Of a stretch of DNA of 32,000 nucleotides, positions 4,775 to 25,679 are shown piece after piece. Made by a program: the position numbers and the translations under genes. Position 1 is the stretch's first letter. Each line of letters starts with the position of its first letter. Below the pieces are notes generated by a model. That model was not told where the DNA came from and made no database searches. It saw only the letters and a program-made list of their open reading frames with translations. This stretch comes from Geobacter sulfurreducens PCA (lineage in GTDB: Bacteria > Desulfobacterota > Desulfuromonadia > Geobacterales > Geobacteraceae). The DNA lies in assembly GCF_000007985.2 (NCBI RefSeq), contig NC_002939.5, positions 2,820,001 to 2,852,000 of the forward strand, read 5' to 3'.

Positions 4775-5260
4775 TCAGGGCAGCGTGCGCGTCTTCTCTC
4801 CCCTGTGGACTACCCAGCGCAGCCGAGCGGTCCCCGTGGCCGGATCCAGCTCCAGGGCCACGGCCATTCCCTTGCGCAGCGGCACAGCCTCCGGCCTTCC
4901 CAGCAGATCGGCCACCACCCGGCCCACGTCGGGCTCGTGCCCCACGATGGCCACATGGCTGGCTCCGGGCCGACCGGCCAGCAGCCGGGCAAGCCCCTCC
5001 CGGTCGAAACCGGGGGCAAGTTCCCGGGAGACCGCCAGCTCCCCGTCGTAGTCCAGGCCGGCGGCGAGTAGTTCCGCCGTCTGCACGGCACGGACCAGGG
5101 GGCTGGTGACGATCAGATCGAGAGACATGCGCCGTCGGGCAATGACCCGGACGCTGGTGGCAAAGGAAGCCCGCCCCCGCGGCGTAAGCCAGCGGTCCTC
5201 CTCGGCGATCGCCGGAGCGCGTTCCACCGCCTCGGCGTGGCGCACCACGAGCAATTTCAT
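4775..5260 (-). CDS. sixA: phosphohistidine phosphatase SixA-like (histidine phosphatase superfamily)
   Basis: MKLLVVRHAEA (RH motif) and IVGHEPDVG second His motif; about 160 aa. ATG at 5260 is preceded by GGAGGTGAT. Confidence 0.8.
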   Translation of the reverse strand: MKLLVVRHAEAVERAPAIAEEDRWLTPRGRASFATSVRVIARRRMSLDLIVTSPLVRAVQTAELLAAGLDYDGELAVSRELAPGFDREGLARLLAGRPGASHVAIVGHEPDVGRVVADLLGRPEAVPLRKGMAVALELDPATGTARLRWVVHRGEKTRTLP

Positions 5261-5412
5261 ATCACCTCCGGCACAGCGTGCAGTCCGGCTCCGCAAAAGA
5301 GTAAAGCACAGCATGCAGCGTTTTCAATGAGAATTCCCGCACAAAGCCACGGACAGGCAAAGATTTTACGCGGTTGTAACAATCAAGGGAGCCGGGCCGG
5401 CAGCCTTGATCA

Positions 5413-5441
5413 TTGACACACCTCTCGCCGATAGGTATCCT
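5413..5441 (+). promoter_or_regulatory. sigma-70-type promoter TTGACA-17-TATCCT placed for a leaderless ykgJ-like transcript
   Basis: TTGACA at 5413-5418, a 17-nt spacer, and TATCCT at 5436-5441. The ATG at 5448 lies 7 nt after the -10 box and has no SD. Confidence 0.4.
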
Positions 5442-5447
5442 CATGCC

Positions 5448-5765
5448 ATGAAAAATCAGGACGAATCCGGCGATGGGTGGGAATCCCTCTGTGAGCGGTG
5501 CGGCCTCTGCTGCTTCGAGAAGATCGAAGACGAGAACGGCACCGTCTTCTTCACCGCAACCCCCTGCCGCTATCTGGACGTGACCACCCGCCAGTGCGTC
5601 ATCTATGACAAACGGTTCGACATCAATCCCGAGTGCGTCAAGCTGACCGAGGAACTGGTGAGAACGCTCCCCTGGCTTCATGACGACTGCGCCTACCGCA
5701 AGGCGCTGGGGGTACGGCTGTCAAAGGTCAGAATGAACGGACGCAACAAGGGGAAAAGGGGCTGA
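5448..5765 (+). CDS. YkgJ/UPF0153-type CxxCxxCC zinc/iron-chelating domain protein
   Basis: CERCGLCC motif plus downstream Cys residues (TPCRYL, RQCVIY, PECV). ATG at 5448. Confidence 0.7.
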   Translation: MKNQDESGDGWESLCERCGLCCFEKIEDENGTVFFTATPCRYLDVTTRQCVIYDKRFDINPECVKLTEELVRTLPWLHDDCAYRKALGVRLSKVRMNGRNKGKRG

Positions 5766-5824
5766 GCCGGAGACGCGCCCGCACATCGCACGTTGCAACG
5801 AACAGGGAAGGGAGTTTTCAGGAA

Positions 5825-7102
5825 ATGGGACGTGATGGCAGCAAGGTAGTCAGTCTGGAGGAGGAGCGCACCCGCCGCGCCATGGTCGGTAAAGCGACGG
5901 GCCCCGATGCGGAGGCGGCGTCTGCAGTCCCCGGCGGGGCCACCGCCTGGAAGCAGATGAACGCCCTCCTCGCCGACCCTCGCGCCCGGGAGGTGGTGCG
6001 CGCGCTGCCGGAGCAGCAGTTTTACTGGATACTGACCGAGGTGGGAATGACCGACGCCGTGGAGTTCTGGGAACTGGCGTCGCCGCGGCAGCGGATGTTC
6101 ATTCTGGACATGGAGCTCTGGGACTCGTGGAATTTTTCCGAAGCGAAATCACACCAGTGGCTCAACCACCTGCTGGAGGCGGGCGAAGAGGCCGTGCTGG
6201 AGCAGCTGCCCCACATGGACGCGGAACTTCTCATTCTAATGTTCAAGAAGGAGATCATCGTCGGCGGCGGTATCGGCGACCTGGTCTCCGACGAAGAGCG
6301 GGTGGCCGACTGGGACCACAGCTTCGACAACGTCTACTTCTTAACCTTCCGCAACGCCGAACGGGCCCGCGCCGTGGGGACCTTCATCGATATCATCTTC
6401 CGCAACGACCGGGAGCTCTACCTGGGGCTCATGGAGGGGATCAAAGTGGAGCTGGAGAGCGAGCTGGAAGAGCTCGCCTACCGCTTCCGCTCGGGCCGGC
6501 TCGCCGACCTGGGGTTCCCCGAGCTGGAGGATGCCCTTACCATCTATGCCCGGCTCTCTCCCGACAGCTTCATCCCCTCAGCCGAAAAGCGACTAGACCT
6601 GGCCTCGGGTATAACCGGCCTCCCCATGCCGGCGGGATACGAGGAGTCATTCCTCAACCGTGCCCTGGCCCGGGTGGAGGGTCCGGTGGATCAGGAGCTC
6701 ACCGCCCTCGTCAACAGCGCCCTGGTGGCCGACGGCGCCGCCCTCCGCTCCCGCGAAGGAATGGAGGCGATCTTCCGGCGGGTCCACGGTTACCTCTCCA
6801 TCGCCCTTGAACACCTGTCAGACGGCGACGTGGAACGGGCCGCCGCGATCATCGGCCGGGAATACCTCTCCCGCCTCTTCCGGCTCGGCTTCGGCATGGT
6901 CATGGAACTGCGCAAGCACCACGAATCGCTGGTGATCGACGATTACGCCACCGGCAGGGTGATCGAGGGGCTGCGGGCCACGCCGCCCCGCTTCTACCGG
7001 GCTCTGGACCCGGACGGCATCGACGGCTTCCGGGAGTTCCGGGAACTCGCCGACATCCGCCGGATCAACGAACTGCTGGACCGTCATGGGGACCCGGCAT
7101 GA
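5825..7102 (+). CDS. conserved hypothetical helical protein (425 aa), family not confidently recognised
   Basis: Long ORF with normal codon and amino-acid usage. GGGAAGGGAG RBS upstream. Stop overlaps the start of the next gene (ATGA at 7099-7102). Confidence 0.7.
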   Translation: MGRDGSKVVSLEEERTRRAMVGKATGPDAEAASAVPGGATAWKQMNALLADPRAREVVRALPEQQFYWILTEVGMTDAVEFWELASPRQRMFILDMELWDSWNFSEAKSHQWLNHLLEAGEEAVLEQLPHMDAELLILMFKKEIIVGGGIGDLVSDEERVADWDHSFDNVYFLTFRNAERARAVGTFIDIIFRNDRELYLGLMEGIKVELESELEELAYRFRSGRLADLGFPELEDALTIYARLSPDSFIPSAEKRLDLASGITGLPMPAGYEESFLNRALARVEGPVDQELTALVNSALVADGAALRSREGMEAIFRRVHGYLSIALEHLSDGDVERAAAIIGREYLSRLFRLGFGMVMELRKHHESLVIDDYATGRVIEGLRATPPRFYRALDPDGIDGFREFRELADIRRINELLDRHGDPA

Positions 7103-14595: not shown

Positions 14596-14634
14596 AAACA
14601 AAAGGATGCCCGAGACGGCACGAGGGGCATCCTT
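14596..14634 (-). terminator. intrinsic terminator after the DUF2019 gene (or attenuator ahead of cysE)
   Basis: The minus strand reads AAGGATGCCC-(13 nt loop)-GGGCATCCTT followed by TTGTTTCC: a 10-bp GC-rich stem plus a T-tract. Confidence 0.65.
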
Positions 14635-14704
14635 ACATTAAGGATATTCGATCAGTAGCATACCCTACAATTTTTGTCAACTTCTAGCAGGTCCCTCCTC
14701 CCCG

Positions 14705-15058
14705 TCACGAAAGGGTCAACTCTCCCTTTTCCCAGCGCTCGATGGCCACGGACGCCCGGAAGCCCAGGAGCCCCGGCTCCCGGGCCAGCCGCCGCAGGAT
14801 CGCCAGGGAGCGGGGTGCATCGTGGGAAAGCGAATAGACCGCAGCCATGCCCGCCGCGGCTCCGGTGCCGCGCTCCGCGGCGTCCAGCAGTCCGGCCCGC
14901 CCCGCCGCGCCGAAGGCGGCGATCTCCCGATAGAGGCGCGCGAGCATCGTCGCATGGCGGTCAGCCCGCCCCGCGTCCATGGCCTCCAGGGCTTCCCCGT
15001 GGGCGGTGGCCGCCGCGGTAAAGCGGCCGATCAGGATTGACAGGCGCTGCTCTTCCAT
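14705..15058 (-). CDS. DUF2019-like small helical protein
   Basis: 117 aa, Ala-rich helical. The pattern ending in LLGFRASVAIERWEKGEL resembles DUF2019. AAGGGAG RBS. Last gene before the terminator. Confidence 0.55.
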   Translation of the reverse strand: MEEQRLSILIGRFTAAATAHGEALEAMDAGRADRHATMLARLYREIAAFGAAGRAGLLDAAERGTGAAAGMAAVYSLSHDAPRSLAILRRLAREPGLLGFRASVAIERWEKGELTLS

Positions 15059-15085
15059 TCCACTCCCTTCCCGTTCAGGCCGCGA

Positions 15086-16192
15086 TCATGCCAGGAACAG
15101 CACCTGCTCCAGGGCCGCCTTCTCCTCCACGGGCTGGTCCATGAGCGAGGTCCGGATCGCGACGAAGGCCTCCACGTTGGCCAGGAATATTTCCAGCAGA
15201 CGAGGGTCGAAGAACGATGCCCGCCCGTCCCCCATGACGGAGAGAACTTCGTCGAAGGGCATTGCCGGCTTGTAGGGGCGCTCCGAGCAGAGGGCGTCGA
15301 ACACATCGACGATCATGACGATGCGCCCGAAGATGTGGATATCTTCTCCGGCCAACCCGCAGGGGTAACCGGTGCCGTCCCATTTTTCGTGGTGCTGGAG
15401 GGCAACGATCCGTCCCATCTCCAGGGATGTGTACCGGTCGCCGCCGGCGAGGATCTTGCCGCCGATGACCGTGTGGAGACGCATGATCTCCATCTCCTCG
15501 TCCGTGAGCCGTCCGGGCTTGAGGAGTATCCGGTCCGGTATGCCGAGCTTGCCCACGTCGTGAAGCGGAGCCGCGTAGCGGAGCACCTCGCACTGGTCCT
15601 CGGGCAGCCCGCTCAACCGGCCGAGCTCCCGGGCCATCTCGCTGATGCGGCGCGTGTGCATGCCGGTTTCCACATCGCGGAACTCGGCGGCGCGGCCAAG
15701 GCGCAGCGTTATCTCGTACTCCGCCTCCCGGGCCATGGCCAGGGCGTTTCTGACCTCGGCGGTCTTGCGGGCCACTTCCCGCTCCAGGATGCCGTTCACG
15801 TCCTGGGACAGGTCCACCAGCTTCTTGGCGCGGACATGGTTCATCACCCGCAGGCGCAACTCCTCCGTGTCGTAGGGTTTGGCGAGAAAATCGTTGGCCC
15901 CCAGCCTCAGGGTCCGGGTCACTTCGTCCTTGCTGGCCGTGAGGACGATAACGGGGATGTCGCACCACAGAGGATGCTTCTTGAGGGTGGCGAGCGTCGC
16001 AAACCCGTTCAGCTCGGGCATCTCCAGATCGAGCAGGATGAGGTCGATGGCGGAGTTCTTATCCAGCACCCGGAGAGCTTCCAGGCCATTCTGCGCCGTG
16101 ATCGGCGTTGCCAGGCCGTCGAGCATGACCGAAAGCAACTCACGGTTCATTTCTTCATCATCTACCACAAGGACCGAGATTGAATCCAGCAT
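15086..16192 (-). CDS. response regulator with HD-GYP c-di-GMP phosphodiesterase domain (RpfG type)
   Basis: REC (VLVVDDEEMN, DLILLDLEMPELNG, KP), then HDVGKLGIPDRIL ... HHEKWDGTGYP. Confidence 0.9.
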   Translation of the reverse strand: MLDSISVLVVDDEEMNRELLSVMLDGLATPITAQNGLEALRVLDKNSAIDLILLDLEMPELNGFATLATLKKHPLWCDIPVIVLTASKDEVTRTLRLGANDFLAKPYDTEELRLRVMNHVRAKKLVDLSQDVNGILEREVARKTAEVRNALAMAREAEYEITLRLGRAAEFRDVETGMHTRRISEMARELGRLSGLPEDQCEVLRYAAPLHDVGKLGIPDRILLKPGRLTDEEMEIMRLHTVIGGKILAGGDRYTSLEMGRIVALQHHEKWDGTGYPCGLAGEDIHIFGRIVMIVDVFDALCSERPYKPAMPFDEVLSVMGDGRASFFDPRLLEIFLANVEAFVAIRTSLMDQPVEEKAALEQVLFLA

Positions 16193-16195
16193 GAT

Positions 16196-18748
16196 CTATC
16201 TCTCCGTTTCGCGTACAAACGTGTCATATTCGGCGGCAAGGGGCTGAAGCAGGGAAACCGCTTCGTCCAGCCGGCCGCTGATGGCGGCGTCCTCAATGCG
16301 CAGGGCCAAGGCGAGCACGCGTTGCGCGCCGATATTGCCGGCGGCGCCGACAATGGCGTGTGCCCCCACCCGAAGCCCCGCGACATCCCGTTTCTCCACT
16401 GCCTCCCAAAGCTTGGCAAGATTCTTTTCCGTCCCGTCCCGGAACATCCCCACGAACTTCGGAACCAGCTCGTCCTTGCCCCGGAGCCGGGCCAGCAATC
16501 CCTGCCGGTCGAAAACCGGCGGCGCCTCGTCCGCGACCGCGGGGGCGGTTTCCCGCCCGTCGCCGGCGCCGTCGAGCGAGCCATCGACCCCGCAGCAGGA
16601 GTGCACTGCCCGGACCAGTTCCTCGGCCGTAAAGGGCTTGGCCACATAGCCGTCCATGTCGGCGGACAGACACTGTTCCCGATCCTGCCGCCCGGCATAG
16701 GCGGTCAGCGCCAGGATGGGGGTCCGTCGGCCGGAACCGCGCTCCTGCTCACGAATTCGACGGGCGGTCTCGAACCCGTCCATAACCGGCATCTGCACAT
16801 CCATCAGCACCAGGTCGAAGCGGGAGTCCTCAAGGGCCTTCAGGACCTCCTCGCCGTTGGCGGCCTGGGCCACCCGGTGCCCCATCCGGCCGAGAATGGC
16901 GTTGACCAGCATCCGGTTCACCTCCACGTCGTCGGCCACCAGGATACTGAGGCCGGGGCCGCTGCCGGGCTGCGCCGACCGGGGGGGTGTTTCGGACGGT
17001 TCCCGCCCGGTCAGAGCCGAAACGATCGCCTCCCCGAGATCGCCGTGCACGAGCGGCTTGAGCAGACACCTCGCCTTGTCCGGCCAGAGGCGGCTCTCCT
17101 TTTCGACCACGTCGCCCACCTCGGTCATCAGGATCAGCCTCAACTCCGTGCCGACGCCTTCGGTCAGGCGCTGGAGCGCCTCCTGCCAGCCGGCACCCAG
17201 GGACTTCTTGTCCACCAGCGCCATCAGGGGCTCACCGGCAGCGGTCGTCATGCCGGCGGCAAGCTCCAGGGCATCGTCCACGGTGGCCGCCACCCGGGGC
17301 CGCATGCCCCAGCCGGTCAGGTAGGAGACGAGGACCCTGCGGCTGCTCGTGGGCGCCTCGACCACCAGCACGGGCCGCCCGGCAAGGCCGTGGTCCGCGA
17401 GGCTGTCGGGTTCAGGCGGCCGGAGCTGGAACCGGCAGGTGAAGTAAAACGTGCTCCCCTCCCCCGGGGCGCTCTCGACCCGGATATCGCCCCCCATGAG
17501 TTGAACGATCCTGCGGGAAATGGCCAGGCCGAGGCCGGTGCCGCCGAAACGCTTGGTGGTGGATGAATCGGCCTGCTCGAACACGTTGAAAATCCGGTCC
17601 AGCGCCTCCGGCGCGATCCCGCACCCCTGGTCCGAAACCGAAAACCGGAGAAGCACTTCGTTCCCCTCGACGGCCGCCGTTTCCACCGCCACCACGACCT
17701 CTCCGCCGTCGGAGAACTTGATGGCGTTGCCCACCAGGTTCACCAGAACCTGGCGCAGTTTCCCGCAATCGCCGATGAGCGGGTCGATCACATCTTCCCG
17801 GGGGTCGCAGACGAGTTCCACCCCCTTCTCGGCCGCCCGGGCGGACAGGGAGCGCACCGCCTGTCCCACGAACGTGCGCAGGGAAAAGGGCACCGGGTCC
17901 AACTCAACCTTCCCCGCTTCTATCTTGGAGAAATCGAGGATGTCGCCGATGACCCCCATGAGGCAGTCGGCGGACCCCTTGATCGCACCGAGGTACTGGT
18001 GCTGTTGCGTTTGGTTCAGCCCGCCGCCGAGCAGGAGGTCGGTCATCCCCATGATGCCGTTCAGGGGGGTCCTGATCTCATGGCTCATGTTGGCGAGGAA
18101 ATCGCTCTTGGCGCGGCTGGCGCTTTCCGCCTGTTCCCGGGCCGCGGCCAGGTCGCGGGTCCGCTCCTGCACCCGCTGCTCCAGCGAGGCCAGGGTATCC
18201 CGTACCATGGAGTACAGCTCCGTGCTCTCCAGAGAGTGGGCGCAGGTGTGCATGATGACCGACACGGCGTTGAGGGTTGCCGCATCGGGTGAATGGGAGC
18301 TGCCGGGGAGAATGCCCGCGAACATGCCGCGGATCCGGGAGCGGGTGGCGACCACGTGCAGCAGCAGGGACCGGTCGTCGGCCAGGGGGACGAGGATGGC
18401 CTGGTTCCGGTTCAGGGCCCAGGCAAAGGTGCCGTCCACGATCTTGGCGTCGATGATGCGCTGGATTTCGTCATGCCCCTCGTCCGGCTCCCAGGAGACA
18501 AGTTTGAAGCTGCCGTCGCTGCACGAGATGAGAAAGCCGGTCATGCGGCAGTCGAGGACCCGACGGAGCTGGGTCAGGGTGGCCCGGAAGATTTCCTGGG
18601 GGTCCTTTGCGCGGCCCAGGTCACTGTGGAACATACTGCTGGAGGCCAGCATGTCGAGGATCGACAAGTAGCGATGGTTGGCTTCTTCCAGGTAATTGAC
18701 GCGCTCCAGCAGGAAGGCGCGGGATGGTGCGGCGGCCTTCTGTCTCAT
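16196..18748 (-). CDS. hybrid sensor histidine kinase: GAF-like N-terminus, HisKA, HATPase_c, atypical receiver, canonical receiver, HPt
   Basis: [15 protein letters not shown]-box; [11 protein letters not shown]; receiver [28 protein letters not shown]; C-terminal HPt ([14 protein letters not shown]). No TM helices. Confidence 0.9.
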
Positions 18749-19612
18749 TTATCCCTCCACGAGGATGGCGAACGTTTCCTCTACCTGGGGCTCGGACTGC
18801 TTCACTATTGTCGTCAGGATCGACACCGGCACACCGAGGCGGTCCCACGCGGCGGGGTCCAGGAGGGGCACCCCCCCTTCGCCACTGGCGCCATACCCGA
18901 GGGCCTGACAGATGATGTCGGCCAGGTGGATGATCGACACCTCCAGCGAGAATTGCTCGGCCTTGCCGGGCTCGTGGTGATAGGCGACCGGCTCGTTGAT
19001 GGTGGCAGGAATCTTCCACGCGCGCAGCAGTGCGCCGCCCAGGGCGGCGTGGTCGAAGCCGAGCGCGTCCCGTTCGGTGGCATCGAGGAAGCGGGACTCC
19101 AACCGGTTCCTGGCCAGCACCTCGCTGACTTTTTCGGGAATGGCGGTGCACATGACCAACTGCCCCACGTCATGGAGAATGCCCGCCACGAAGAACCGCT
19201 CCACGTTGCTTTCGCGGAGATAGATCGCCAGGTTGCGGGCCACGATGCCGCAGGCGATGCTGTGCCGCCAGAACAGCACCATGTCCATCAGCTCGCGGGG
19301 GATATCCTTGAAGACATCCATTACCGAGGCCGCAAGGGCCAGGTCCCGCAGCTGCTGGGTGCCGATGATCGTCACCGCTTTCGAGATGGAGTCGACCTTG
19401 GAGAAAAAGCCGAACATGGGGCTGTTGGCGAGTTTCAGGATGCGCGCGGTCAACCCCTGATCGTCGATGATGATCCGGGCCACATCGTCGATGGAGCTGC
19501 GGGGATGGTTGATCGCCTCGTTGAGCCGCTCGTAGAAATAGGGGAGCGAGTAGACCGTCCGGGTCCGGTCAACGATCCACTCCATAGTCAGGGTGTGGTT
19601 ATGGGTTGCCAT
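18749..19612 (-). CDS. HDOD domain-containing protein
   Basis: VARIIIDDQGLTARILKLANSPMFGF...AVTIIGTQQLRDLALA is the HDOD signature. Its stop abuts the kinase start (TAAATG). Confidence 0.85.
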   Translation of the reverse strand: MATHNHTLTMEWIVDRTRTVYSLPYFYERLNEAINHPRSSIDDVARIIIDDQGLTARILKLANSPMFGFFSKVDSISKAVTIIGTQQLRDLALAASVMDVFKDIPRELMDMVLFWRHSIACGIVARNLAIYLRESNVERFFVAGILHDVGQLVMCTAIPEKVSEVLARNRLESRFLDATERDALGFDHAALGGALLRAWKIPATINEPVAYHHEPGKAEQFSLEVSIIHLADIICQALGYGASGEGGVPLLDPAAWDRLGVPVSILTTIVKQSEPQVEETFAILVEG

Positions 19613-19934
19613 GGATGACCTTTCTCAGGGCGGCAAGGCGCAGCAGCTCGCGCATCACCGGATGCTCCATGTCGTTTTCCCCGAACAGGGGCCTGAGCTC
19701 TGCCTCGGCAGCCTCCATCAGAGCCGGCGGGACCTCGGGGGAGAGGGGCGAGGCCGAGCCGCTGCTGTCTTCCCCCGCGATGTCGGCTTCAGTCACGCCC
19801 CAGGTCATCAGGATGACAATATGCTTGCGCTCCAGCTCCACCCCGGCCCCCAGCAGCAGCCTCCCGGTGCGGTCATGGACGTCAGCGGCAAGGACCATTC
19901 CCTCTTCGAGGTTTTCAGTCGGCACTATTCCCAC
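19599..19934 (-). CDS. hypothetical 111-aa protein
   Basis: GTG start with GGAG 8 nt upstream; overlaps the HDOD start by 14 nt. The N-terminal half (ENLEEGMVLAADVHDRTGRLLLGAGVEL) resembles the small beta-rich N-terminal modules seen ahead of some HD-GYP/HDOD proteins. This is a pattern-level match only. Confidence 0.5.
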   Translation of the reverse strand: MGIVPTENLEEGMVLAADVHDRTGRLLLGAGVELERKHIVILMTWGVTEADIAGEDSSGSASPLSPEVPPALMEAAEAELRPLFGENDMEHPVMRELLRLAALRKVIHGNP

Positions 19935-19948
19935 GGTTCAGGCTCCCC

Positions 19949-19974
19949 GGCGCCGGCATCCCTTCTCCGGCGCC
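19949..19974 (-). other. 8-bp all-GC stem-loop in the cheW / 111-aa ORF intergenic gap
   Basis: GGCGCCGG-(10 nt)-CCGGCGCC with no T-tract, ending 6 nt before the GGAG RBS of the next gene. Confidence 0.5.
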
Positions 19975-20020
19975 CACGAATTGATGCGTTCCGCCAGTAG
20001 CATACCACGGCTTGGCCGGG

Positions 20021-20527
20021 TCAGCACAGGCGTGAAGTATCGCCGAGCTGTCCCAGTTCGCGGGGCGTCAGCATCTTGTCTGGGTCCAGCATCACCAGCA
20101 GTTTCTCCCCCTGGTCGACCACGCCAACGATGTACTCCTGCTCGCCGCCGGAGCTGAGCAGCGCGGGCGACGGCTGAATCCGGTTGCCGGCGATCCGGAT
20201 CACCTCAGACACGGCATCCACCCTGAATCCCAGCAGGGCGTCCCCCACGCCCATTACCACGATCCGGGTCCGGTTGTCGCTAGCCACGTCCGCCAGGCCG
20301 AACTTGTCGCGCATGGAGATGATCGGGATCACCCTCCCCCGCAGGTTGATGATCCCGTCCACGTAAGGCGGGGCCTCGGGAACATGGGTTATGGTGCTCA
20401 TCCGGATGATCTCCCGGACCTTCAGGACGTCCACCCCATACTCTTCATGGTCGACCGTGAAGCTGACCAGCTGAATCAGTTCATCGCTCGGGCCGACCGA
20501 GACATTCGTTACCAGTGCGTGTGCCAT
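20021..20527 (-). CDS. cheW: chemotaxis coupling protein CheW
   Basis: LVSFTVDHEEYGVDVLKVREI, INLRGRVIPIISMRDKFGL; 168 aa. GGAGGGAG RBS. Confidence 0.9.
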   Translation of the reverse strand: MAHALVTNVSVGPSDELIQLVSFTVDHEEYGVDVLKVREIIRMSTITHVPEAPPYVDGIINLRGRVIPIISMRDKFGLADVASDNRTRIVVMGVGDALLGFRVDAVSEVIRIAGNRIQPSPALLSSGGEQEYIVGVVDQGEKLLVMLDPDKMLTPRELGQLGDTSRLC

Positions 20528-20558
20528 GACTCCCTCCGTATGCTCGCGACGCGAACGC

Positions 20559-22190
20559 TCAGGCCAGCCTGAAGCGGCCGATCAGGGCTTGCAGATCCTG
20601 GGCCTGACGGGCCAGCTGGGCGGCGGCATCGGCCGTCTCTTCGGCCCCCTGGGCGGTCTGGTGCACCACCTCGGTGATCTGCTGGATATTGCTGGTCACC
20701 TCGCCGGTGGTCGCGGTCTGCTCTTCGGCGGCCGTCGCGATCTGTCCCACCTGCATGCTCACCTCGTTCACCTGGTTCAGGATCTGCTGGAGCGCCGTTT
20801 CCAGCTGAGCCGCCTCGATGGCGCCCCGCTCCGTCCCGCGCACCCCCTCCTCCATGGAGACGATGGCCGTCTTGGTTTCCTGCTGGATGGCCCGGATCAT
20901 CTCACCGATCTCCTTGGTGGCCCGGGTGGTCCGCTCGGCCAGGGCCCTCACCTCGTCGGCCACCACCGCGAACCCGCGGCCCTGTTCCCCGGCCCGGGCC
21001 GCCTCGATGGCGGCGTTGAGCGCCAGCAGGTTGGTCTGGTCGGCGATGTCCTCGATGGTGCCCACGATGTCGCCGATCTGCTCGGAGCGGTCGCCGAGCG
21101 ATGCCACGATCTGGGCATTCTGGCGGGTTTTTTCGCCCCGGTCGCGAATTCCATCAACGGTGTGCCTGACCACGTCGAACCCCTGGCGGGTGGTGGCGGC
21201 CACCTGCTCGGCACTCCCGGCGGCGGCATGGCAGTTGGTCGCGATGTCCTGGCTGGTGGCCGACATCTCCTCGCTGGCGGTGGCCACGGTGCCGGCCTGG
21301 GAAGCCACTTCCTCGGTGCCGGTGGCGATCTGCTCGGACGTAGCGTGGAGCTGGGACGAGGCAGACGCAATACCGGCGGAGATGGTTGCGGTCTGGGTCA
21401 CCATCTCCCGCAGGCTCCGCACCATGTTCTGCATGGCGGTCAGCAGCCGGCCCGTCTCGTCCGTGGAGGTGGCGGCAACGACAACCGTCAGGTCGCCGTC
21501 CGCCAGGCGGTTGGCCACGTCCACCGCCCGGCTCAGCGGAGTGGTGATCATCCGGGAAATGAGCAGGCCGAGTCCGATGGCCAGGATCACGCCCACCGCC
21601 GACAGCACCGCCATCACCGTAAAGGAGGTCGAGGCAACGTGCTCGTTGCGCTCGGCGGTCAGCTTTGCCTGCGCCTGCTTGGCGTCGACCAGCTTGCTGA
21701 GCAGCTCCTGGTAATGCAGTGCCGCTTTCTTGGCGTCACCGTGGAGCAGCGCCTTTGCCTCGGTGACCTTTTTCGCGCTGTTCAGTTGCATGATGTTGTC
21801 GATGTAGCCCCCATAGACCTTGCGGGCTTCCTTATACTCGTTGAACAGCGTGCGGCCCTCGTCGGTCAGGATGGTTTTCTCGAAATTGTCCTGGTGCTCC
21901 GTGATGACCTCCCGGAGTTTCCGGATCGTATCGAGGTACAGTGCCTGCTCCGCCGGGTCGGTCGCCTCGACCGCGTCGCGCAGGTTGATCCTGACCCGCT
22001 GGAAGGCCACCGACATCTCCGCCAGATCGTGCATGGGCACGGTGATCTTTTCGTACAGCCTCCGGTCGTCGCTCTGGATTCTGCGAATCTCCACGGAGCC
22101 GATGAAACCGACCACGGCGGCGATCGCGGCGACGACGCTGAATGCGGCCACGAGCTTGATTCCCACTCTCAGGTTCCTCAACCATTGCAT
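20559..22190 (-). CDS. methyl-accepting chemotaxis protein (4-helix-bundle sensor, HAMP, MA signalling domain)
   Basis: ATG at 22190 follows GAGGAG ([13 protein letters not shown]..., TM1). The tracked upstream 45 aa are non-protein-like. Second TM, then HAMP. Highly conserved tip [20 protein letters not shown]. Confidence 0.9.
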
Positions 22191-22209
22191 GATGGTATCT
22201 CCTCTTTGT

Positions 22210-22482
22210 TCAGTCGTTGGCGGGCTGTGACAGCCGTGATTCCCGGCCGCACTCCTCCGGCTCGGCGGGGGAAAAGCGCTTGATGCTCCTGTCGAGTTGC
22301 CCCGCCAGTTGCTCAAGCAGATCAAAGTAATCCTGGTTCACTGCCCGAAGTTCTTCGCTGCTGAGCCGATACCCCTCTTCCCGGCAGGCATCGGCCAGCG
22401 AAACTATCGCCCGCTGCCGGAACCCGTCATCGGTCAACAGGCGACCAAGGAATTTTTCAACAGCTTCTTGCGTCACGGGCAT
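22210..22482 (-). CDS. small helical protein (about 90 aa), Nif11/NHLP-clan-like N-terminal pattern
   Basis: First ORF downstream of the sigma-54 promoter. GAGGAGG lies directly upstream, so the GTG at 22476 may be the real start. [19 protein letters not shown]...[12 protein letters not shown] resembles Nif11/NHLP-type leader-like domains. Confidence 0.6.
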
Positions 22483-22493
22483 CCTCCTCGTGT

Positions 22494-22510
22494 TGTCCCT
22501 TCACGGGACA
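22494..22510. promoter_or_regulatory. inverted repeat TGTCCC-N5-GGGACA in the P1 leader
   Basis: TGTCCCTTCACGGGACA, at about +15 to +31 and directly upstream of the GAGGAGG RBS. Confidence 0.4.
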
Positions 22511-22535
22511 GTTGAACAATTGTTACCCTTTATTC

Positions 22536-22551
22536 AGCAGGCAGGATGCCA
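22536..22551 (-). promoter_or_regulatory. sigma-54 (-24/-12) promoter P1 for the small-protein/MCP operon
   Basis: The minus strand reads TGGCAT-CCTGC-CTGCT (GG-N10-GC spacing). The -12 C is at 22537, so the predicted TSS is about 22525, 43 nt upstream of the ATG at 22482. Confidence 0.65.
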
Positions 22552-22605: not shown

Positions 22606-22620
22606 GTCCCCCTGAGGGAC
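22606..22620. promoter_or_regulatory. inverted repeat GTCCC-N5-GGGAC upstream of P1
   Basis: GTCCCCCTGAGGGAC, centred about -88 from the predicted P1 start site. Same arms as the leader repeat. Confidence 0.4.
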
Positions 22621-22684
22621 AGAGTGGGGCAAAATGGAACAGTGGGGGATGAGGGGGGTGCTGCAGGGGGAGCGCGGCGCGGGG

Positions 22685-24055
22685 TCAGCCCCGGTAGAAT
22701 GCCTTGCGGTCGATCCTGAGGAGCTGGGCCGCCCTGGACTTGTTGCCGCCGCAGCGCTCCAGGGTGATGGCCATGATCCGCTCGGTGAGGGCATGGAGCG
22801 ACAACTGGTCAACGGGCAGCGCCAGGGCGTACTGCACCGTGTCGGGCGCCGGTCCGGCAGATGTTTCCCGGGCAGGGGCTCCGGCCGCGCCGAACCCCAG
22901 GTGCTCGGGCCGGATCAGCTCGCCGTCGGTCAGGATCGCGGCGCGCTCCAGGCAGTTGCGCAACTCCCGCACATTGCCCGGCCAGCCGTGGGCCAGCATG
23001 GCGTCCATGGCCTTCTGGGAGATGCCGGGCAGCGGCTTGCCCAGGTGCTGCCGCAGCTGGTCGAGGACGTGCTCGCACAGGAGCGGGATGTCGTCGGTGC
23101 GCTCCCGCAGAGGCGGAATGACCAAGGGAAACACGTTGATCCGGTGATAGAGGTCTTCGCGGAAGCGGCCGGCCGCCACCATGTCGGCCAGGTTGCGGTT
23201 GGTGGCCACGATAACGCGGCAATCCGTCGAGATGGGGGTATTGCTGCCGATCTTTTCGAACACGCGCTCCTGGAGGACTCTCAGCAACTTGGCCTGGAGC
23301 GGCAGGGGCATGTCGCCGATCTCGTCCAGCAGAAGCGTGCCGCCGCGGGCCAGACTGAACTTTCCCTCCCGATCCCGGTCGGCCCCGGTGAAGGCCCCCC
23401 GCACGTGGCCGAACAGCTCGCTCTCCAGCAAGTGCTCGGGCACGGCCGCGCAGTTGACCGCCACGAATCCGGCGGGCAGCCCTTTGCCGGCAAAGTGGAT
23501 GGCCCGCGCCAGCACCTCCTTGCCCGAGCCGCTTTCGCCGTAGATGGCCACCGTGGTCTGCCGCGCCGCAGCCACCCTGGCGGCCAGCTCCAGCAGCTTC
23601 TTCATGGCCGGATTCACCGTAACGATGCTCTGGAAGGTGAACCGCTCGCGCAACAGCCCCGTGATCTGCTCGTTCTCGCGGACCACGTGGTGATAGTCCA
23701 GGGCCCGCTGGAGCGTGATCCTCAGCACCTCGGGGTTGAAGGGCTTTGCCAGGTAGTCGTAGGCGCCCCGCCGCATGGCCTCCACGGCGCTCTCCACGCT
23801 CCCCCGGGCCGTGACCACGATGACCGGCACGTTCGGGTAGCGCTCCCTGACCCGATCCAGGAGTTCCAGACCGTTCATCCCCTCCATGATCAGGTCGGAG
23901 ATGAGCAGGTCCACATGCTCCCGCTCCAACAGCGCCAGCGCCTGTGCGCCGCTGACCGCGGTCAGGGGGGCGAATCCCGCATCGGCCAGCAGGTTCTCCA
24001 GCATCAAGAGAGAAAGCTCGTCATCGTCGACGGCAAGAATCTTCGGAGCGGTCAT
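22685..24055 (-). CDS. sigma-54-dependent response regulator (REC + AAA+ sigma-54 activation + Fis-type HTH; NtrC family)
   Basis: ILAVDDDE / DLLISDLIMEGMNG receiver; GESGSGKE Walker A; GAFTGA loop; ESELFGH; C-terminal HTH (NKSRAAQLLRIDRKAFY). Confidence 0.9.
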   Translation of the reverse strand: MTAPKILAVDDDELSLLMLENLLADAGFAPLTAVSGAQALALLEREHVDLLISDLIMEGMNGLELLDRVRERYPNVPVIVVTARGSVESAVEAMRRGAYDYLAKPFNPEVLRITLQRALDYHHVVRENEQITGLLRERFTFQSIVTVNPAMKKLLELAARVAAARQTTVAIYGESGSGKEVLARAIHFAGKGLPAGFVAVNCAAVPEHLLESELFGHVRGAFTGADRDREGKFSLARGGTLLLDEIGDMPLPLQAKLLRVLQERVFEKIGSNTPISTDCRVIVATNRNLADMVAAGRFREDLYHRINVFPLVIPPLRERTDDIPLLCEHVLDQLRQHLGKPLPGISQKAMDAMLAHGWPGNVRELRNCLERAAILTDGELIRPEHLGFGAAGAPARETSAGPAPDTVQYALALPVDQLSLHALTERIMAITLERCGGNKSRAAQLLRIDRKAFYRG

Positions 24056-24282: not shown

Positions 24283-25446
24283 TTAGTACTTCGGATAGAA
24301 GCGGAGCACGAACTGGTTCGGGGTCGGCCAGGAGGCGTTCAGCTTGTTGACCGTGATGTAGTAGTTGACGCCCAGGTTGGCCAGGTCTTCGATGGGGCCG
24401 GTCAGGTACAGCCGGTTGGACTGCCAGGACGCCAGCACGTCGGCCGGAACCGGCTTCTTGATGCCGTCCGAGGGATAGGGAAGGCCGTTGGCGTCCAGGC
24501 CGGCCTGGCTGCGGTAGGTCACCCAGGTCCCTTCGCAGTAACCCGTTTCCGCGACCGGATCGGTTACCACGAAGTTGCCGTCGCAGTTGGCCATCAGCAG
24601 GTTGTCGGTGTTGATGTTGTCGTCGTTGTCATAGTAGTAGGCCCAGGGCACGCTGGACAGGTTGTTCCAGTCGCCGAACAGCGCATAGTAGTTGGAGGAG
24701 ATCAAGCCGGTGTCGAGCCCGTCTTCCGTGGCGTTGAGCAGGTAGCTGAAGCGATACTTCGGATCGAAGTAACCGGTGCTCGGATGATTGGCGTCGGCGG
24801 GCCCGGCCAGCCCCTGGGCGAACAGGGCCGACAGGACTTCGGCGGACTGAACGGCGGACGAGGTGGTGGTGAAGAATCTCCCTTTCTTGTCGGTGAAGCC
24901 GAGGCCGTCACCGGCCTTGGACTTGGTGAACACGCCGTTCACCATGAAGCCCAGCTCGGCCCGGAAGCCTTTCCACTTCTTCACGTCGCCGTCGGTCAGC
25001 TTCTGCATGGAGTTGTAGATGCTGGTATAGGTGTCGGTCGCCACCTTGAAATACACGTCGATGGGCTGGCCGTTGGTCCCCTTCACTTTCCAGCGCTTGC
25101 TGGACTGGAGCGGGTCCGAGCACATCTTGTCGGAGAAGTCGTAGGGGTTGTAGCCGGTGGTCATGATGCACTTGAGACCGGTCACGTCGTCCTTGTTGAC
25201 GACCTTCATGCCGGGCGCCTTGACGTCGGTCTCTTTCCAGGTGATCACGCCGTTCGTGGTAGTCTTGGCCGGGCTGGTGAAGAGGGTGCTGGTGTAGGTC
25301 ACATACTCGGTATAGGGGGCAGGCGCCACCGTCACGTTGCTCATGTCCCACCCGGTGATGGTGCCGGCCCAGGCGGCCGAAGCGGCAACAGACAACGATA
25401 CTCCCAGCAGTGCGGACAGCTTCTTTGCAGTTTTGCTTCTCGACAT
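24283..25446 (-). CDS. secreted protein of unknown function (387 aa)
   Basis: ATG at 25446 after AAGGAG. Sec signal peptide [29 protein letters not shown]. Thr/Asn/Tyr-rich mature part with no motif I recognise. The tracked 30-aa N-terminal extension lacks an RBS. Confidence 0.8.
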
Positions 25447-25663
25447 GATGTTCTCCTTTTCTTCGTGTGGTTGAGGTTGCTTCGTGCACTTCCTTGCGCG
25501 GGGGAAGCGAATATCGCGCCCCCCTGCTGCTTCCAATGAAAAACCCTTTCCAGCACCCTCCTTTCCGGTGTGCGACCGAATTCTCCAGTTCTGACAGGCG
25601 CCGGGCCGGGGCGCGACTCACGCTGCCCGGCGGCTGTAATCAGTGATCATGCTTGCACTGTTC

Positions 25664-25679
25664 AGCAATGGGCATACCA
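25664..25679 (-). promoter_or_regulatory. sigma-54 (-24/-12) promoter P2 for the secreted 387-aa protein gene
   Basis: The minus strand reads TGGTAT-GCCCA-TTGCT (GG-N10-GC). Predicted TSS is about 25653, giving a leader of roughly 205 nt. Confidence 0.55.

Follow-up and report, generated by a model that had tools for sequence, protein, structure and literature searches.

A widespread HDOD-hybrid kinase unit lies beside a chemoreceptor and CheW, predicted to serve a distal CheA, in a known Geobacter sulfurreducens operon

The genome of Geobacter sulfurreducens PCA (contig NC_002939.5) contains, between forward-strand positions 2,820,001 and 2,852,000, a string of eight genes in which a chemoreceptor gene and a cheW gene are followed by genes for an HDOD protein, a soluble hybrid histidine kinase and a predicted cyclic di-GMP (c-di-GMP) phosphodiesterase. 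We analyzed this whole stretch of 32,000 nucleotides, here called the window (G+C content 64%; positions below are counted from its first letter). A first-pass annotation made from the sequence alone had proposed that the receptor and CheW feed a phosphorelay that works without CheA. We favor, with reasonable though not firm confidence, a different reading in which a c-di-GMP phosphorelay would be co-expressed under a sigma-54 promoter with an orphan receptor and CheW that would serve a CheA encoded elsewhere. The operon is known and annotated and is not a new CheA-free chemosensory pathway. Our analysis adds to it a widespread three-gene unit comprised of an unnamed domain of about 110 amino acids, an HDOD protein and a hybrid kinase. 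Some organisms have the unnamed domain fused to the HDOD protein, and the unit is neighbored by genes for c-di-GMP enzymes and receptors.

HDOD proteins are common and have no agreed function, so their fixed partnership with a kinase points to a testable role as modulators or sensors of histidine kinases in c-di-GMP control. Genetic work is feasible in G. sulfurreducens, where both c-di-GMP and chemosensory arrays of class 40H already matter for electrode colonization.

The HDOD-kinase unit and its predicted output

Eight open reading frames (ORFs) on the minus strand, g1 to g8, run from 22482 down to 14705 with junctions of 19, 31, 86, -14, 0, 3 and 27 nt, exactly as they had first been read. 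In our reading g4 to g7 would form one conserved unit and g2 and g3 a second, both behind one sigma-54 promoter. We compared the neighborhood in loci of the G. sulfurreducens group (L001-L006) and in 84 other loci (L007-L090). The loci came from Oryzomonas, Geobacter sp. DSM 9736, a metagenome contig and 80 genomes found in a scan with the g4 alignment, and the window proteins were mapped onto them by tblastn. In all 84 other loci, as far as the contigs extend, g4 is followed by an overlapping HDOD gene and then by the hybrid kinase gene. The kinase keeps the same N-terminal region as g6, its start lies only a few bases from the HDOD stop codon, and the unit usually begins with g4. A more distant member (L097) has the same triad with a PAS-type kinase, again with g4 overlapping the HDOD gene. 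The longer order of receptor, CheW, HDOD protein, kinase and HD-GYP protein, whose conservation the first-pass annotation had suggested checking, was not conserved. A cheW gene lies beside the unit only in the G. sulfurreducens, G. anodireducens and G. soli group (0/84 other loci), and a gene for a methyl-accepting chemotaxis protein (MCP) lies just upstream of it in three of the 84 (L065, L066 and L068). Thus, the idea of a receptor scaffold feeding this kinase fails the first test that had been set for it.

The genes that do recur beside the unit are predicted to act in c-di-GMP signaling. Among 44 same-strand genes immediately upstream of g4, ten encode PilZ proteins, ten encode GGDEF proteins (mostly REC-GGDEF), two encode EAL proteins and six encode further kinases. 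The kinase gene is followed by a gene for a single receiver or for a full REC-HD-GYP protein, the latter in 7-8 loci. Full-length orthologues of g7 (58-66% identity) are found directly after the kinase gene, or separated from it by one small receiver gene, in L008, L048, L065, L068, L084, L088 and L090. A PilZ protein of about 240 amino acids is the commonest same-strand upstream neighbor in the clade of short kinases, its gene lying roughly 0.7-0.9 kb upstream of g4 (PilZ loci: L016, L019, L020, L023, L026, L041, L045, L051, L053, L056, L064 and L073). A REC-GGDEF gene occupies the upstream place in L071, L076, L077, L079, L083, L084, L088 and L090.

The kinase gene g6 (GSU2575; 16196-18748, minus) is predicted to encode a protein of 850 amino acids with Pfam matches to HisKA (1.6e-19), HATPase_c (1.3e-29), REC (3.8e-31) and Hpt (2.6e-09). 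Its domain order is a conserved N-terminal GAF-like region, HisKA, HATPase, a receiver-like insert, REC and HPt. The HisKA, HPt and two receiver-like domains assigned to it in the first-pass annotation were recovered, while the GAF domain gave only a weak match below the Pfam cut-off (17.5-19.4 bits against 22.4; E = 0.0016-0.006). Among NCBIfam models the top scorers are BarA, TorS and ArcB, none of which reaches its cut-off, and the UniProt name is 'RpfC'. When the middle region was aligned with REC by hhalign the probability was 99.7%, which shows that the second receiver-like domain is real. This insert covers residues ~440-600 (16949-17431) and is present in the 17 long forms among 68 kinase orthologues; the other 51 are short and lack it. 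It also lacks the N-terminal acidic pair (VVEAP) and keeps the Asp, Thr and Lys positions, suggesting that it is probably a pseudo-receiver. Searches with Pfam gave only the weak GAF match and no membrane-domain model at the N-terminus, no transmembrane prediction having been run. Its domain layout is that of the unorthodox hybrid histidine kinases of the BarA/TorS/ArcB/RpfC type, and the protein is predicted to be soluble.

The next gene, g7 (GSU2574; 15086-16192, minus), is predicted to encode a protein of 368 amino acids with a receiver (Pfam Response_reg, 6.9e-24) and an HD_5 domain (1e-33). Its translation retains the HDVGK and HHEKWDGTGYP motifs and the receiver Asp, and it fits the RpfG family as defined in a preprint by Galperin. 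We therefore predict from these motifs that g7 is an RpfG-family c-di-GMP phosphodiesterase activated by phosphorylation. A phosphorelay from g6 to g7 would make c-di-GMP hydrolysis the natural output of the unit. The same output had been proposed at the outset for a soluble HisKA hybrid kinase and a REC-HD-GYP partner, and that proposal gains from the intact motifs and from the c-di-GMP-rich neighborhoods of the relatives. The last gene of the string, g8 (GSU2573; 14705-15058, minus; 117 amino acids), had tblastn matches in L001-L006 only and is thus confined to the G. sulfurreducens group. It had been labeled DUF2019, a label that comes from its UniRef name alone and that we dropped: hmmscan gave no Pfam family at E <= 10, and NCBIfam gave none.

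The two genes ahead of the kinase are tightly joined to it. The start of g5 (GSU2576; 18749-19612, minus; 287 amino acids) overlaps g4 (GSU2577; 19599-19934, minus; 111 amino acids) by 14 nt and its stop codon abuts the start of g6 with a gap of 0 nt, the latter as had been noted from the sequence. Judged by these junctions, g5 is translationally coupled to both. It is an HDOD protein (PF08668, 2.5e-66; 223.4 bits against a cut-off of 22.9). We considered placing it in the same HDOD subfamily as the HDOD protein of the Geobacteraceae 'alpha' chemotaxis cluster discussed below, and rejected this because the two share only 26-27% identity.

There are 47 homologues of g4 at 41% identity or above. 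A family profile search retrieved 2388 representative clusters (50% identity) at E <= 1e-3, 1073 of them at E <= 1e-10, and most members are about 110-120 amino acids long. Ten longer members of 212-437 amino acids were scanned with Pfam. Fusions of the g4 domain to an HDOD domain made up all six of those with 410-437 amino acids and one of 240. These fusions mark g4 as a detached N-terminal domain of an HDOD protein and hence the partner of g5, rather than a free candidate for contact with CheW as had first been thought. In one family member the g4 domain is combined with DUF3391-like and cNMP-binding domains. No Pfam family matched g4 itself, and 29 homologues searched at E <= 1 gave no consistent family. 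An AlphaFold2 model (pLDDT 79) has a small β domain, a disordered linker and two helices. Foldseek found no fold match to it in the PDB below E = 0.02, the hits being small β-barrel pieces of MoeA and RNA polymerase, and we dropped assignments of g4 as CheW/P5-like or PilZ-like. There is also a weak similarity (NCBIfam, 8e-5, below threshold) between residues 4-43 and the C-terminal tail found in NosR-family REC-HD-GYP proteins. A 2026 paper describes stand-alone DUF3391-like β-plus-helix domains beside HDOD or HD-GYP genes, and by this analogy a distant DUF3391-like relationship of g4 is plausible.

In the mechanism that we propose, g4 and the HDOD protein would be the two parts of one accessory or sensor protein, and the overlapping and abutting genes would keep its production in a fixed ratio to that of the kinase. 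The activity of g6 would be set by this pair together with its own GAF-like N-terminal domain. The kinase would then autophosphorylate and relay the phosphoryl group from His to Asp to the His of HPt, and transfer from HPt to the receiver of g7 would switch on c-di-GMP hydrolysis.

The sigma-54 promoter and its probable activator

A sigma-54 -24/-12 promoter, TGGCATcctgcCTGCT, lies at 22536-22551 on the minus strand, 53 nt upstream of the first possible start of g1 (ATG at 22482). It was correctly picked out from the sequence and is the sole match to TGGCAYN5YTGCW on both strands of the window, where 0.15 would be expected. A strong intrinsic terminator had likewise been proposed at the other end of the string, and this holds. 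The hairpin AAGGATGCCC...GGGCATCCTT followed by UUUUGUUU (14596-14634, minus) has a U-tract and a predicted folding energy of -16.7 kcal/mol (z = -3.9), and it closes the string 41 nt upstream of cysE. The genes g1 to g8 look like one sigma-54 operon, and we infer that they form a single transcript. The eight-gene operon and its RpoN promoter are not new. They were predicted by Leang et al. (2009), whose Additional file 4 places 'Promoter 86 TTGGCATCCTGCCTGCT' ahead of predicted operon 1149, GSU2573-GSU2580 (PromScan, RpoN), and the genes were already annotated.

The gene directly upstream of the string, g0 (GSU2581; 22685-24055, minus), was given no weight in the first-pass annotation. It is predicted to encode a receiver, a sigma-54 AAA+ domain and an HTH (Pfam Response_reg 1.2e-28, Sigma54_activat 5.5e-65 and HTH_8), and its translation shows the GAFTGA motif and the receiver Asp. 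From its position, g0 is probably the cognate NtrC-type activator of the adjacent sigma-54 promoter. In Oryzomonas (L007, L021 and L036) an orthologue with 75-77% identity lies directly downstream of g4, the HDOD gene, the kinase gene and a receiver gene in the same gene string. In L065 an orthologue with 58% identity is followed by a gene of the same small-protein family as g1, by cheX, and then by g4, the HDOD gene, the kinase gene, a receiver gene and a REC-HD-GYP gene. This gene neighborhood makes g0 a probable phosphorylation target of g6.

Two palindromes flank the promoter. The first, TGTCCCtcaGGGGGAC (22606-22621, minus), is a candidate activator site that lies some 55 nt ahead of the -24 element and overlaps with a weak hairpin, terminator-like in form, behind g0. 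The second, cTGTCCCgtgaaGGGACa (22494-22510, minus), lies between the promoter and the start of g1 and may serve as another activator or operator site or as a hairpin of the 5' untranslated region. These are the only occurrences of TGTCCC-N3-7-GGGAC in the window, where 0.32 would be expected. Three elements are common to L065 and G. sulfurreducens: the -24/-12 element (in L065 TGGCACcattcATGCG, ahead of its g1-family gene), an upstream TGTCCC-N3-4-GGGGACGC palindrome with the same spacing from TGGCA, and a downstream TGTCC...GGAC palindrome. An 11-nt stretch of the second palindrome, TTCAACTGTCC, is identical in the two. From these shared intergenic features and the linkage of the activator we infer that g6 phosphorylates both g7 and g0 and that the operon is positively autoregulated. 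In the mechanism proposed here, g6 would probably phosphorylate g0 in addition to g7. Phosphorylated g0 would bind the TGTCCC...GGGAC palindromes and fire the sigma-54 promoter, so that the operon would induce itself together with g1, the receptor and CheW.

The first-pass annotation gave no name to g1 (GSU2580; 22210-22476/22482, minus; 88-90 amino acids). This first gene after the promoter encodes a small protein of the Frankia_peptide / Os1348 NHLP-clan type (Pfam PF14407, 100.3 bits against a cut-off of 48; NCBIfam NF038399, 57.6 bits against 40). No maturation or export enzymes for ribosomally synthesized and post-translationally modified peptides (RiPPs) were found near g1 among the Pfam-scanned ORFs of the window, which makes a true RiPP role doubtful. 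In L094 another Frankia_peptide gene (4829-5035) is surrounded by two-component genes, and a truncated g2 sensor-domain homologue is encoded about 4 kb downstream of it. This small-protein family may generally be linked to signaling loci rather than to RiPP enzymes.

A single promoter for the whole string is not the only arrangement to be considered. The juxtaposition could be meaningless and the string could hold two transcription units, with g1, the receptor and cheW read from the sigma-54 promoter and g4 to g8 read from a promoter of their own in the cheW-g4 spacer (19935-20020, minus). At 86 nt this spacer is the largest gap of the string, and what precedes g4 in most relatives is non-coding DNA or a divergently oriented gene. 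No conserved sigma-54 site was found in the 400 nt scanned upstream of g4 in 89 loci, which gave four scattered weak matches, and this argues that the core unit is not generally driven by sigma-54. A k-mer search for a motif shared upstream of g4 across loci gave nothing convincing. The spacer also carries a 12-mer, GGTATGCTACTG (19995-20006, minus), that recurs exactly in the next intergenic region, between g8 and cysE (14653-14664, minus), and nowhere else (chance about 0.004). The repeat may represent an operator or a -10/start region common to both places. A perfect GC hairpin without a U-tract, GGCGCCGG-N10-CCGGCGCC (19949-19974, minus), lies immediately 5' of the g4 ribosome-binding site. 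An internal promoter or a processing site in the spacer is possible on these features. Two separate units nevertheless appear unlikely. We found no terminator-like structure in the spacer, whose fold as a whole is not significant (z = -1.1), and a consensus scan gave no sigma-70 site in it. Moreover, L065 has the same activator, sigma-54 site and Frankia_peptide gene ahead of g4 with only cheX between, an arrangement that argues for regulation of the module by read-through.

The receptor-CheW pair and flanking features

A complete transmembrane receptor and a CheW had been recognized in the string, and Pfam matches bear this out for both. The receptor gene g2 (GSU2579, mcp40H-14; 20559-22190, minus) encodes a protein of 543 amino acids with a 4HB sensor domain (4HB_MCP_1), HAMP and MCPsignal (6.3e-45). 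The tip of its signaling hairpin is E402 and the two arms have 140 and 141 residues, placing g2 in class 40H, the class also given in its source annotation name. This settles the heptad class that was to be assigned as the majority class of the genome, in which 71% of 34 MCPs belong to 40H, alongside 4 cheA and 10 cheW genes. Methylation-type motifs of the EE/EEQ type (EEM and EEQ) are present and the C-terminal pentapeptide is absent. Homologues of the sensor domain (55-56% identity) sit in unrelated contexts, as judged from two loci among the 13 mostly truncated proteins that the search returned.

The cheW gene g3 (GSU2578, cheW64H-2; 20021-20527, minus) encodes a protein of 168 amino acids (Pfam CheW, 7.8e-38) that can be aligned over its whole length with E. 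coli CheW (2HO9; 7e-28), with gaps of only 1-2 residues. It thus lacks the kind of deletion reported for FrzB, a CheA-blind CheW. Members of the species group share 92% identity with it, but beyond that group identity is down to 60-64%, where the matches are CheWs of 164 amino acids from other Geobacteraceae. In each of the two that were inspected, the cheW gene is the first of a CheW-CheA-CheR-HDOD-CheB cluster. This is the 'alpha group' chemotaxis cluster of Geobacteraceae described by Tran et al. (2008), which has no mcp gene and includes 'a protein with an HD domain'. In G. sulfurreducens this cluster is GSU0293-0297, with cheB64H, an HDOD gene, cheR64H, cheA64H (GSU0296) and cheW64H-1 (GSU0297). 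Because it has no MCP genes, it needs receptors encoded elsewhere.

Hidden Markov models (HMMs) for REC and CheW, run on all six-frame ORFs, together with Pfam scans of the other large ORFs found no che genes in the window beyond g2 and g3, in agreement with the first reading of this DNA. REC matches were confined to g6, g7 and g0 and CheW matches to g3, and no H-kinase_dim domain was found among the Pfam-scanned ORFs. CheAs elsewhere in the genome include GSU0296 (CheA64H) and GSU2222, a 40H CheA. The most likely reading of these sequences is that g2 and g3 are an orphan pair predicted to assemble into arrays with a distal CheA. The likeliest partner would be CheA64H of the alpha cluster, with the 40H CheA GSU2222 as the alternative. 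The seemingly CheA-less layout is ordinary, as Geobacter keeps most of its receptors and some of its CheWs apart from che clusters that have no MCP gene. In the reading that we favor, g2 and g3 would not communicate with g6 and would insert into arrays of a CheA encoded elsewhere, with co-expression rather than physical coupling linking the pair to the g4-g7 unit.

Several points weigh against the reading that we favor. MCP genes lie upstream of the module in L065/L068 and L066 as well as in G. sulfurreducens, and the place that CheW holds here is taken in relatives by an MCP, CheX or a CheY-like receiver. In a neighbor-joining tree of the kinase core, G. sulfurreducens falls in a long clade with Oryzomonas, L012 and L048, and L065 and L068 fall in a distant short clade, so chemosensory genes came to lie beside the module at least twice. 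This recurrence exceeds what we would expect from chance and hints at some functional tie. An HDOD gene is also fixed in the alpha che cluster, and HDOD and this type of CheW meet twice in one genome. Together these observations suggest a recurring link between HDOD modules and chemosensory arrays. In addition, the pairing of g0 with g6 is read from gene neighborhood, the CheA used by g2 and g3 is assigned at the level of annotation, and an internal promoter in the 86-nt spacer may make the co-regulation partial only. The MCPs beside the module in the metagenome-assembled genomes L065 (50-1165) and L066 (6561-8558) carry a C-terminal hemerythrin domain after the signaling domain, which suggests sensing of O2, iron or redox state.

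One way to account for such a link is that HDOD proteins, here g4 with g5, dock on 40H/64H receptor-CheW lattices and pass the state of the array or of c-di-GMP to a kinase, which would be CheA in the alpha cluster and g6 here, with the receptor and CheW as a lineage-specific input. This proposal draws on the fixed place of HDOD in the order CheW-CheA-CheR-HDOD-CheB, on a duplicated CheW beside g4-HDOD that is exactly of the alpha-cluster type, and on the recurrence of MCP, CheX and CheY-like REC genes beside the unit in at least two kinase clades. The function of HDOD is still undefined in the literature, which leaves room for such a role. Were HDOD proteins to bridge arrays to kinases in this way, a chemoreceptor would control c-di-GMP hydrolysis in G. 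sulfurreducens with no CheA in the path, and the view of how chemosensory arrays produce outputs would change. However, most g4-HDOD-kinase loci have no chemosensory neighbor, the alpha cluster has no g4-like gene (two clusters inspected), and its HDOD protein is the distant relative of g5 noted above. Contact between HDOD and CheW or an MCP is a proposal drawn from gene arrangement, and we hold this adaptor role to be rather improbable.

We regard as very improbable the original proposal that the receptor and CheW form a CheA-free scaffold controlling g6 directly, perhaps through the HDOD protein or g4, with the 4HB ligand setting c-di-GMP hydrolysis by g7: the genes share one strand with short gaps and no terminator between cheW and g4, no CheA, CheY, CheR or CheB is encoded in the 32 kb, and MCPs abut the module in three relatives, but the order is not conserved, g3 is canonical and belongs to a CheA-linked CheW family, and the receptor keeps its methylation motifs, belongs to a common class served by CheAs elsewhere and has sensor-domain homologues in unrelated contexts. 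Profile searches of the kind suggested at the outset did find the CheW, HDOD, HPt and HD_5 domains, and GAF weakly, but found no P5/CheW-like domain in the string besides g3 itself. The kinase, which had been named as a candidate contact for CheW, has none in its regions without a Pfam domain (hhalign against CheW, 0.4% for the middle and 0.1% for the N-terminal region). The reading that we favor thus remains that of two neighboring systems, co-expressed.

Other features of the locus and its surroundings are as follows. The nine proteins g0-g8 (AAR35946-AAR35954) are identical in G. sulfurreducens PCA and KN400. Published supplementary tables name GSU2579 as mcp40H-14, GSU2578 as cheW64H-2 (in a transposon-sequencing (Tn-seq) supplement) and GSU2572 as cysE. 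A full-text literature search returned no main-text mention of GSU2574-GSU2581, and we found no phenotype or expression statement on GSU2573-GSU2581 in the literature, including the Tn-seq and RpoN supplements. Just upstream of the terminator stem, in 14596-14680 (minus), ATCCTTaatgtAAGGAT could base-pair with the stem's 5' half in an alternative hairpin, and a TTGACA is found slightly further upstream. Besides ending transcription, the structure might double as an attenuator in a cysE-iscR leader. No Rfam family was found across the whole window, so that the terminator and leader region is not a known riboswitch. A second sigma-54-type site, TGGTATGCCCATTGCT (25664-25679, minus), lies upstream of the ORF at 24283-25536 that precedes the activator gene and encodes a 'choice-of-anchor F family protein' (NCBIfam). 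In another G. sulfurreducens genome (CP010430, L003) a DDE transposase gene (DUF4372 + DDE_Tnp_1; 5249-6418) has inserted immediately ahead of the activator gene. In L001, the contig DNKT01000076 of a metagenome-assembled genome, no full-length MCP or kinase gene was called, and the tblastn match to the MCP is in three pieces, one of 81% identity.

Comparison with known signaling systems

The closest parallel to the kinase and its partner is the RpfC/RpfG pair. The HisKA-HATPase-REC-HPt order of RpfC recurs in g6, and g7 matches RpfG as an adjacent REC and HD-GYP partner with intact HD, HHE and GYP motifs and predicted c-di-GMP turnover. RpfC of Xanthomonas is a membrane sensor of the diffusible signal factor (DSF), and the Xanthomonas system has a linked rpfF synthase gene. 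By contrast, g6 is predicted to be soluble with a GAF-like N-terminus, and no rpfF or other enoyl-CoA hydratase-type gene was found among the Pfam-scanned ORFs of the window. The locus described here also differs in its obligatory g4 and HDOD genes, in the extra receiver-like insert and in the linked sigma-54 activator.

The Wsp pathway (MCP, CheW, CheA/Y hybrid and REC-GGDEF) likewise has a 40H receptor, WspA, and a CheW encoded together with a receiver-bearing c-di-GMP enzyme. Wsp uses a CheA hybrid kinase, which is absent here, and its output is synthesis rather than hydrolysis of c-di-GMP. In Myxococcus xanthus, Che3 and CrdS/CrdA are described (PMC3147164) as a chemosensory module, a conventional histidine kinase and an NtrC-like sigma-54 activator acting on one output, as could be the case here. 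The Che3 cluster differs in having CheA, CheB and CheR, and it is not known to involve a c-di-GMP enzyme or HDOD protein. Its coupling was shown experimentally, whereas the g2-g7 locus is known from its genes.

The alpha che cluster of Tran et al. (2008) shares with the window a CheW of one type, g3 being a second copy that is 60-64% identical to those of other genera, and a stand-alone HDOD gene close to cheW in both places. The window differs in lacking CheA, CheR and CheB, and its HDOD protein is of another subfamily, tied to g4 and a HisKA kinase.

The Esn network of G. sulfurreducens (Chan et al., 2017) is formed by EsnA (the 40H MCP GSU1704), EsnB (CheW), EsnC (CheA) and EsnD (REC-GGDEF). 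Esn has a bona fide CheA and a cyclase as output; here an HD-GYP hydrolase is found with a non-CheA kinase, and the tie between the receptor g2 and the enzyme g7 is one of genes. In both cases a c-di-GMP enzyme is the proposed output, and EsnA, like g2 in the reading that we favor, is encoded away from the CheW/CheA pair that it works with, EsnB and EsnC. This precedent shows that unlinked 40H MCPs use distal CheAs in G. sulfurreducens.

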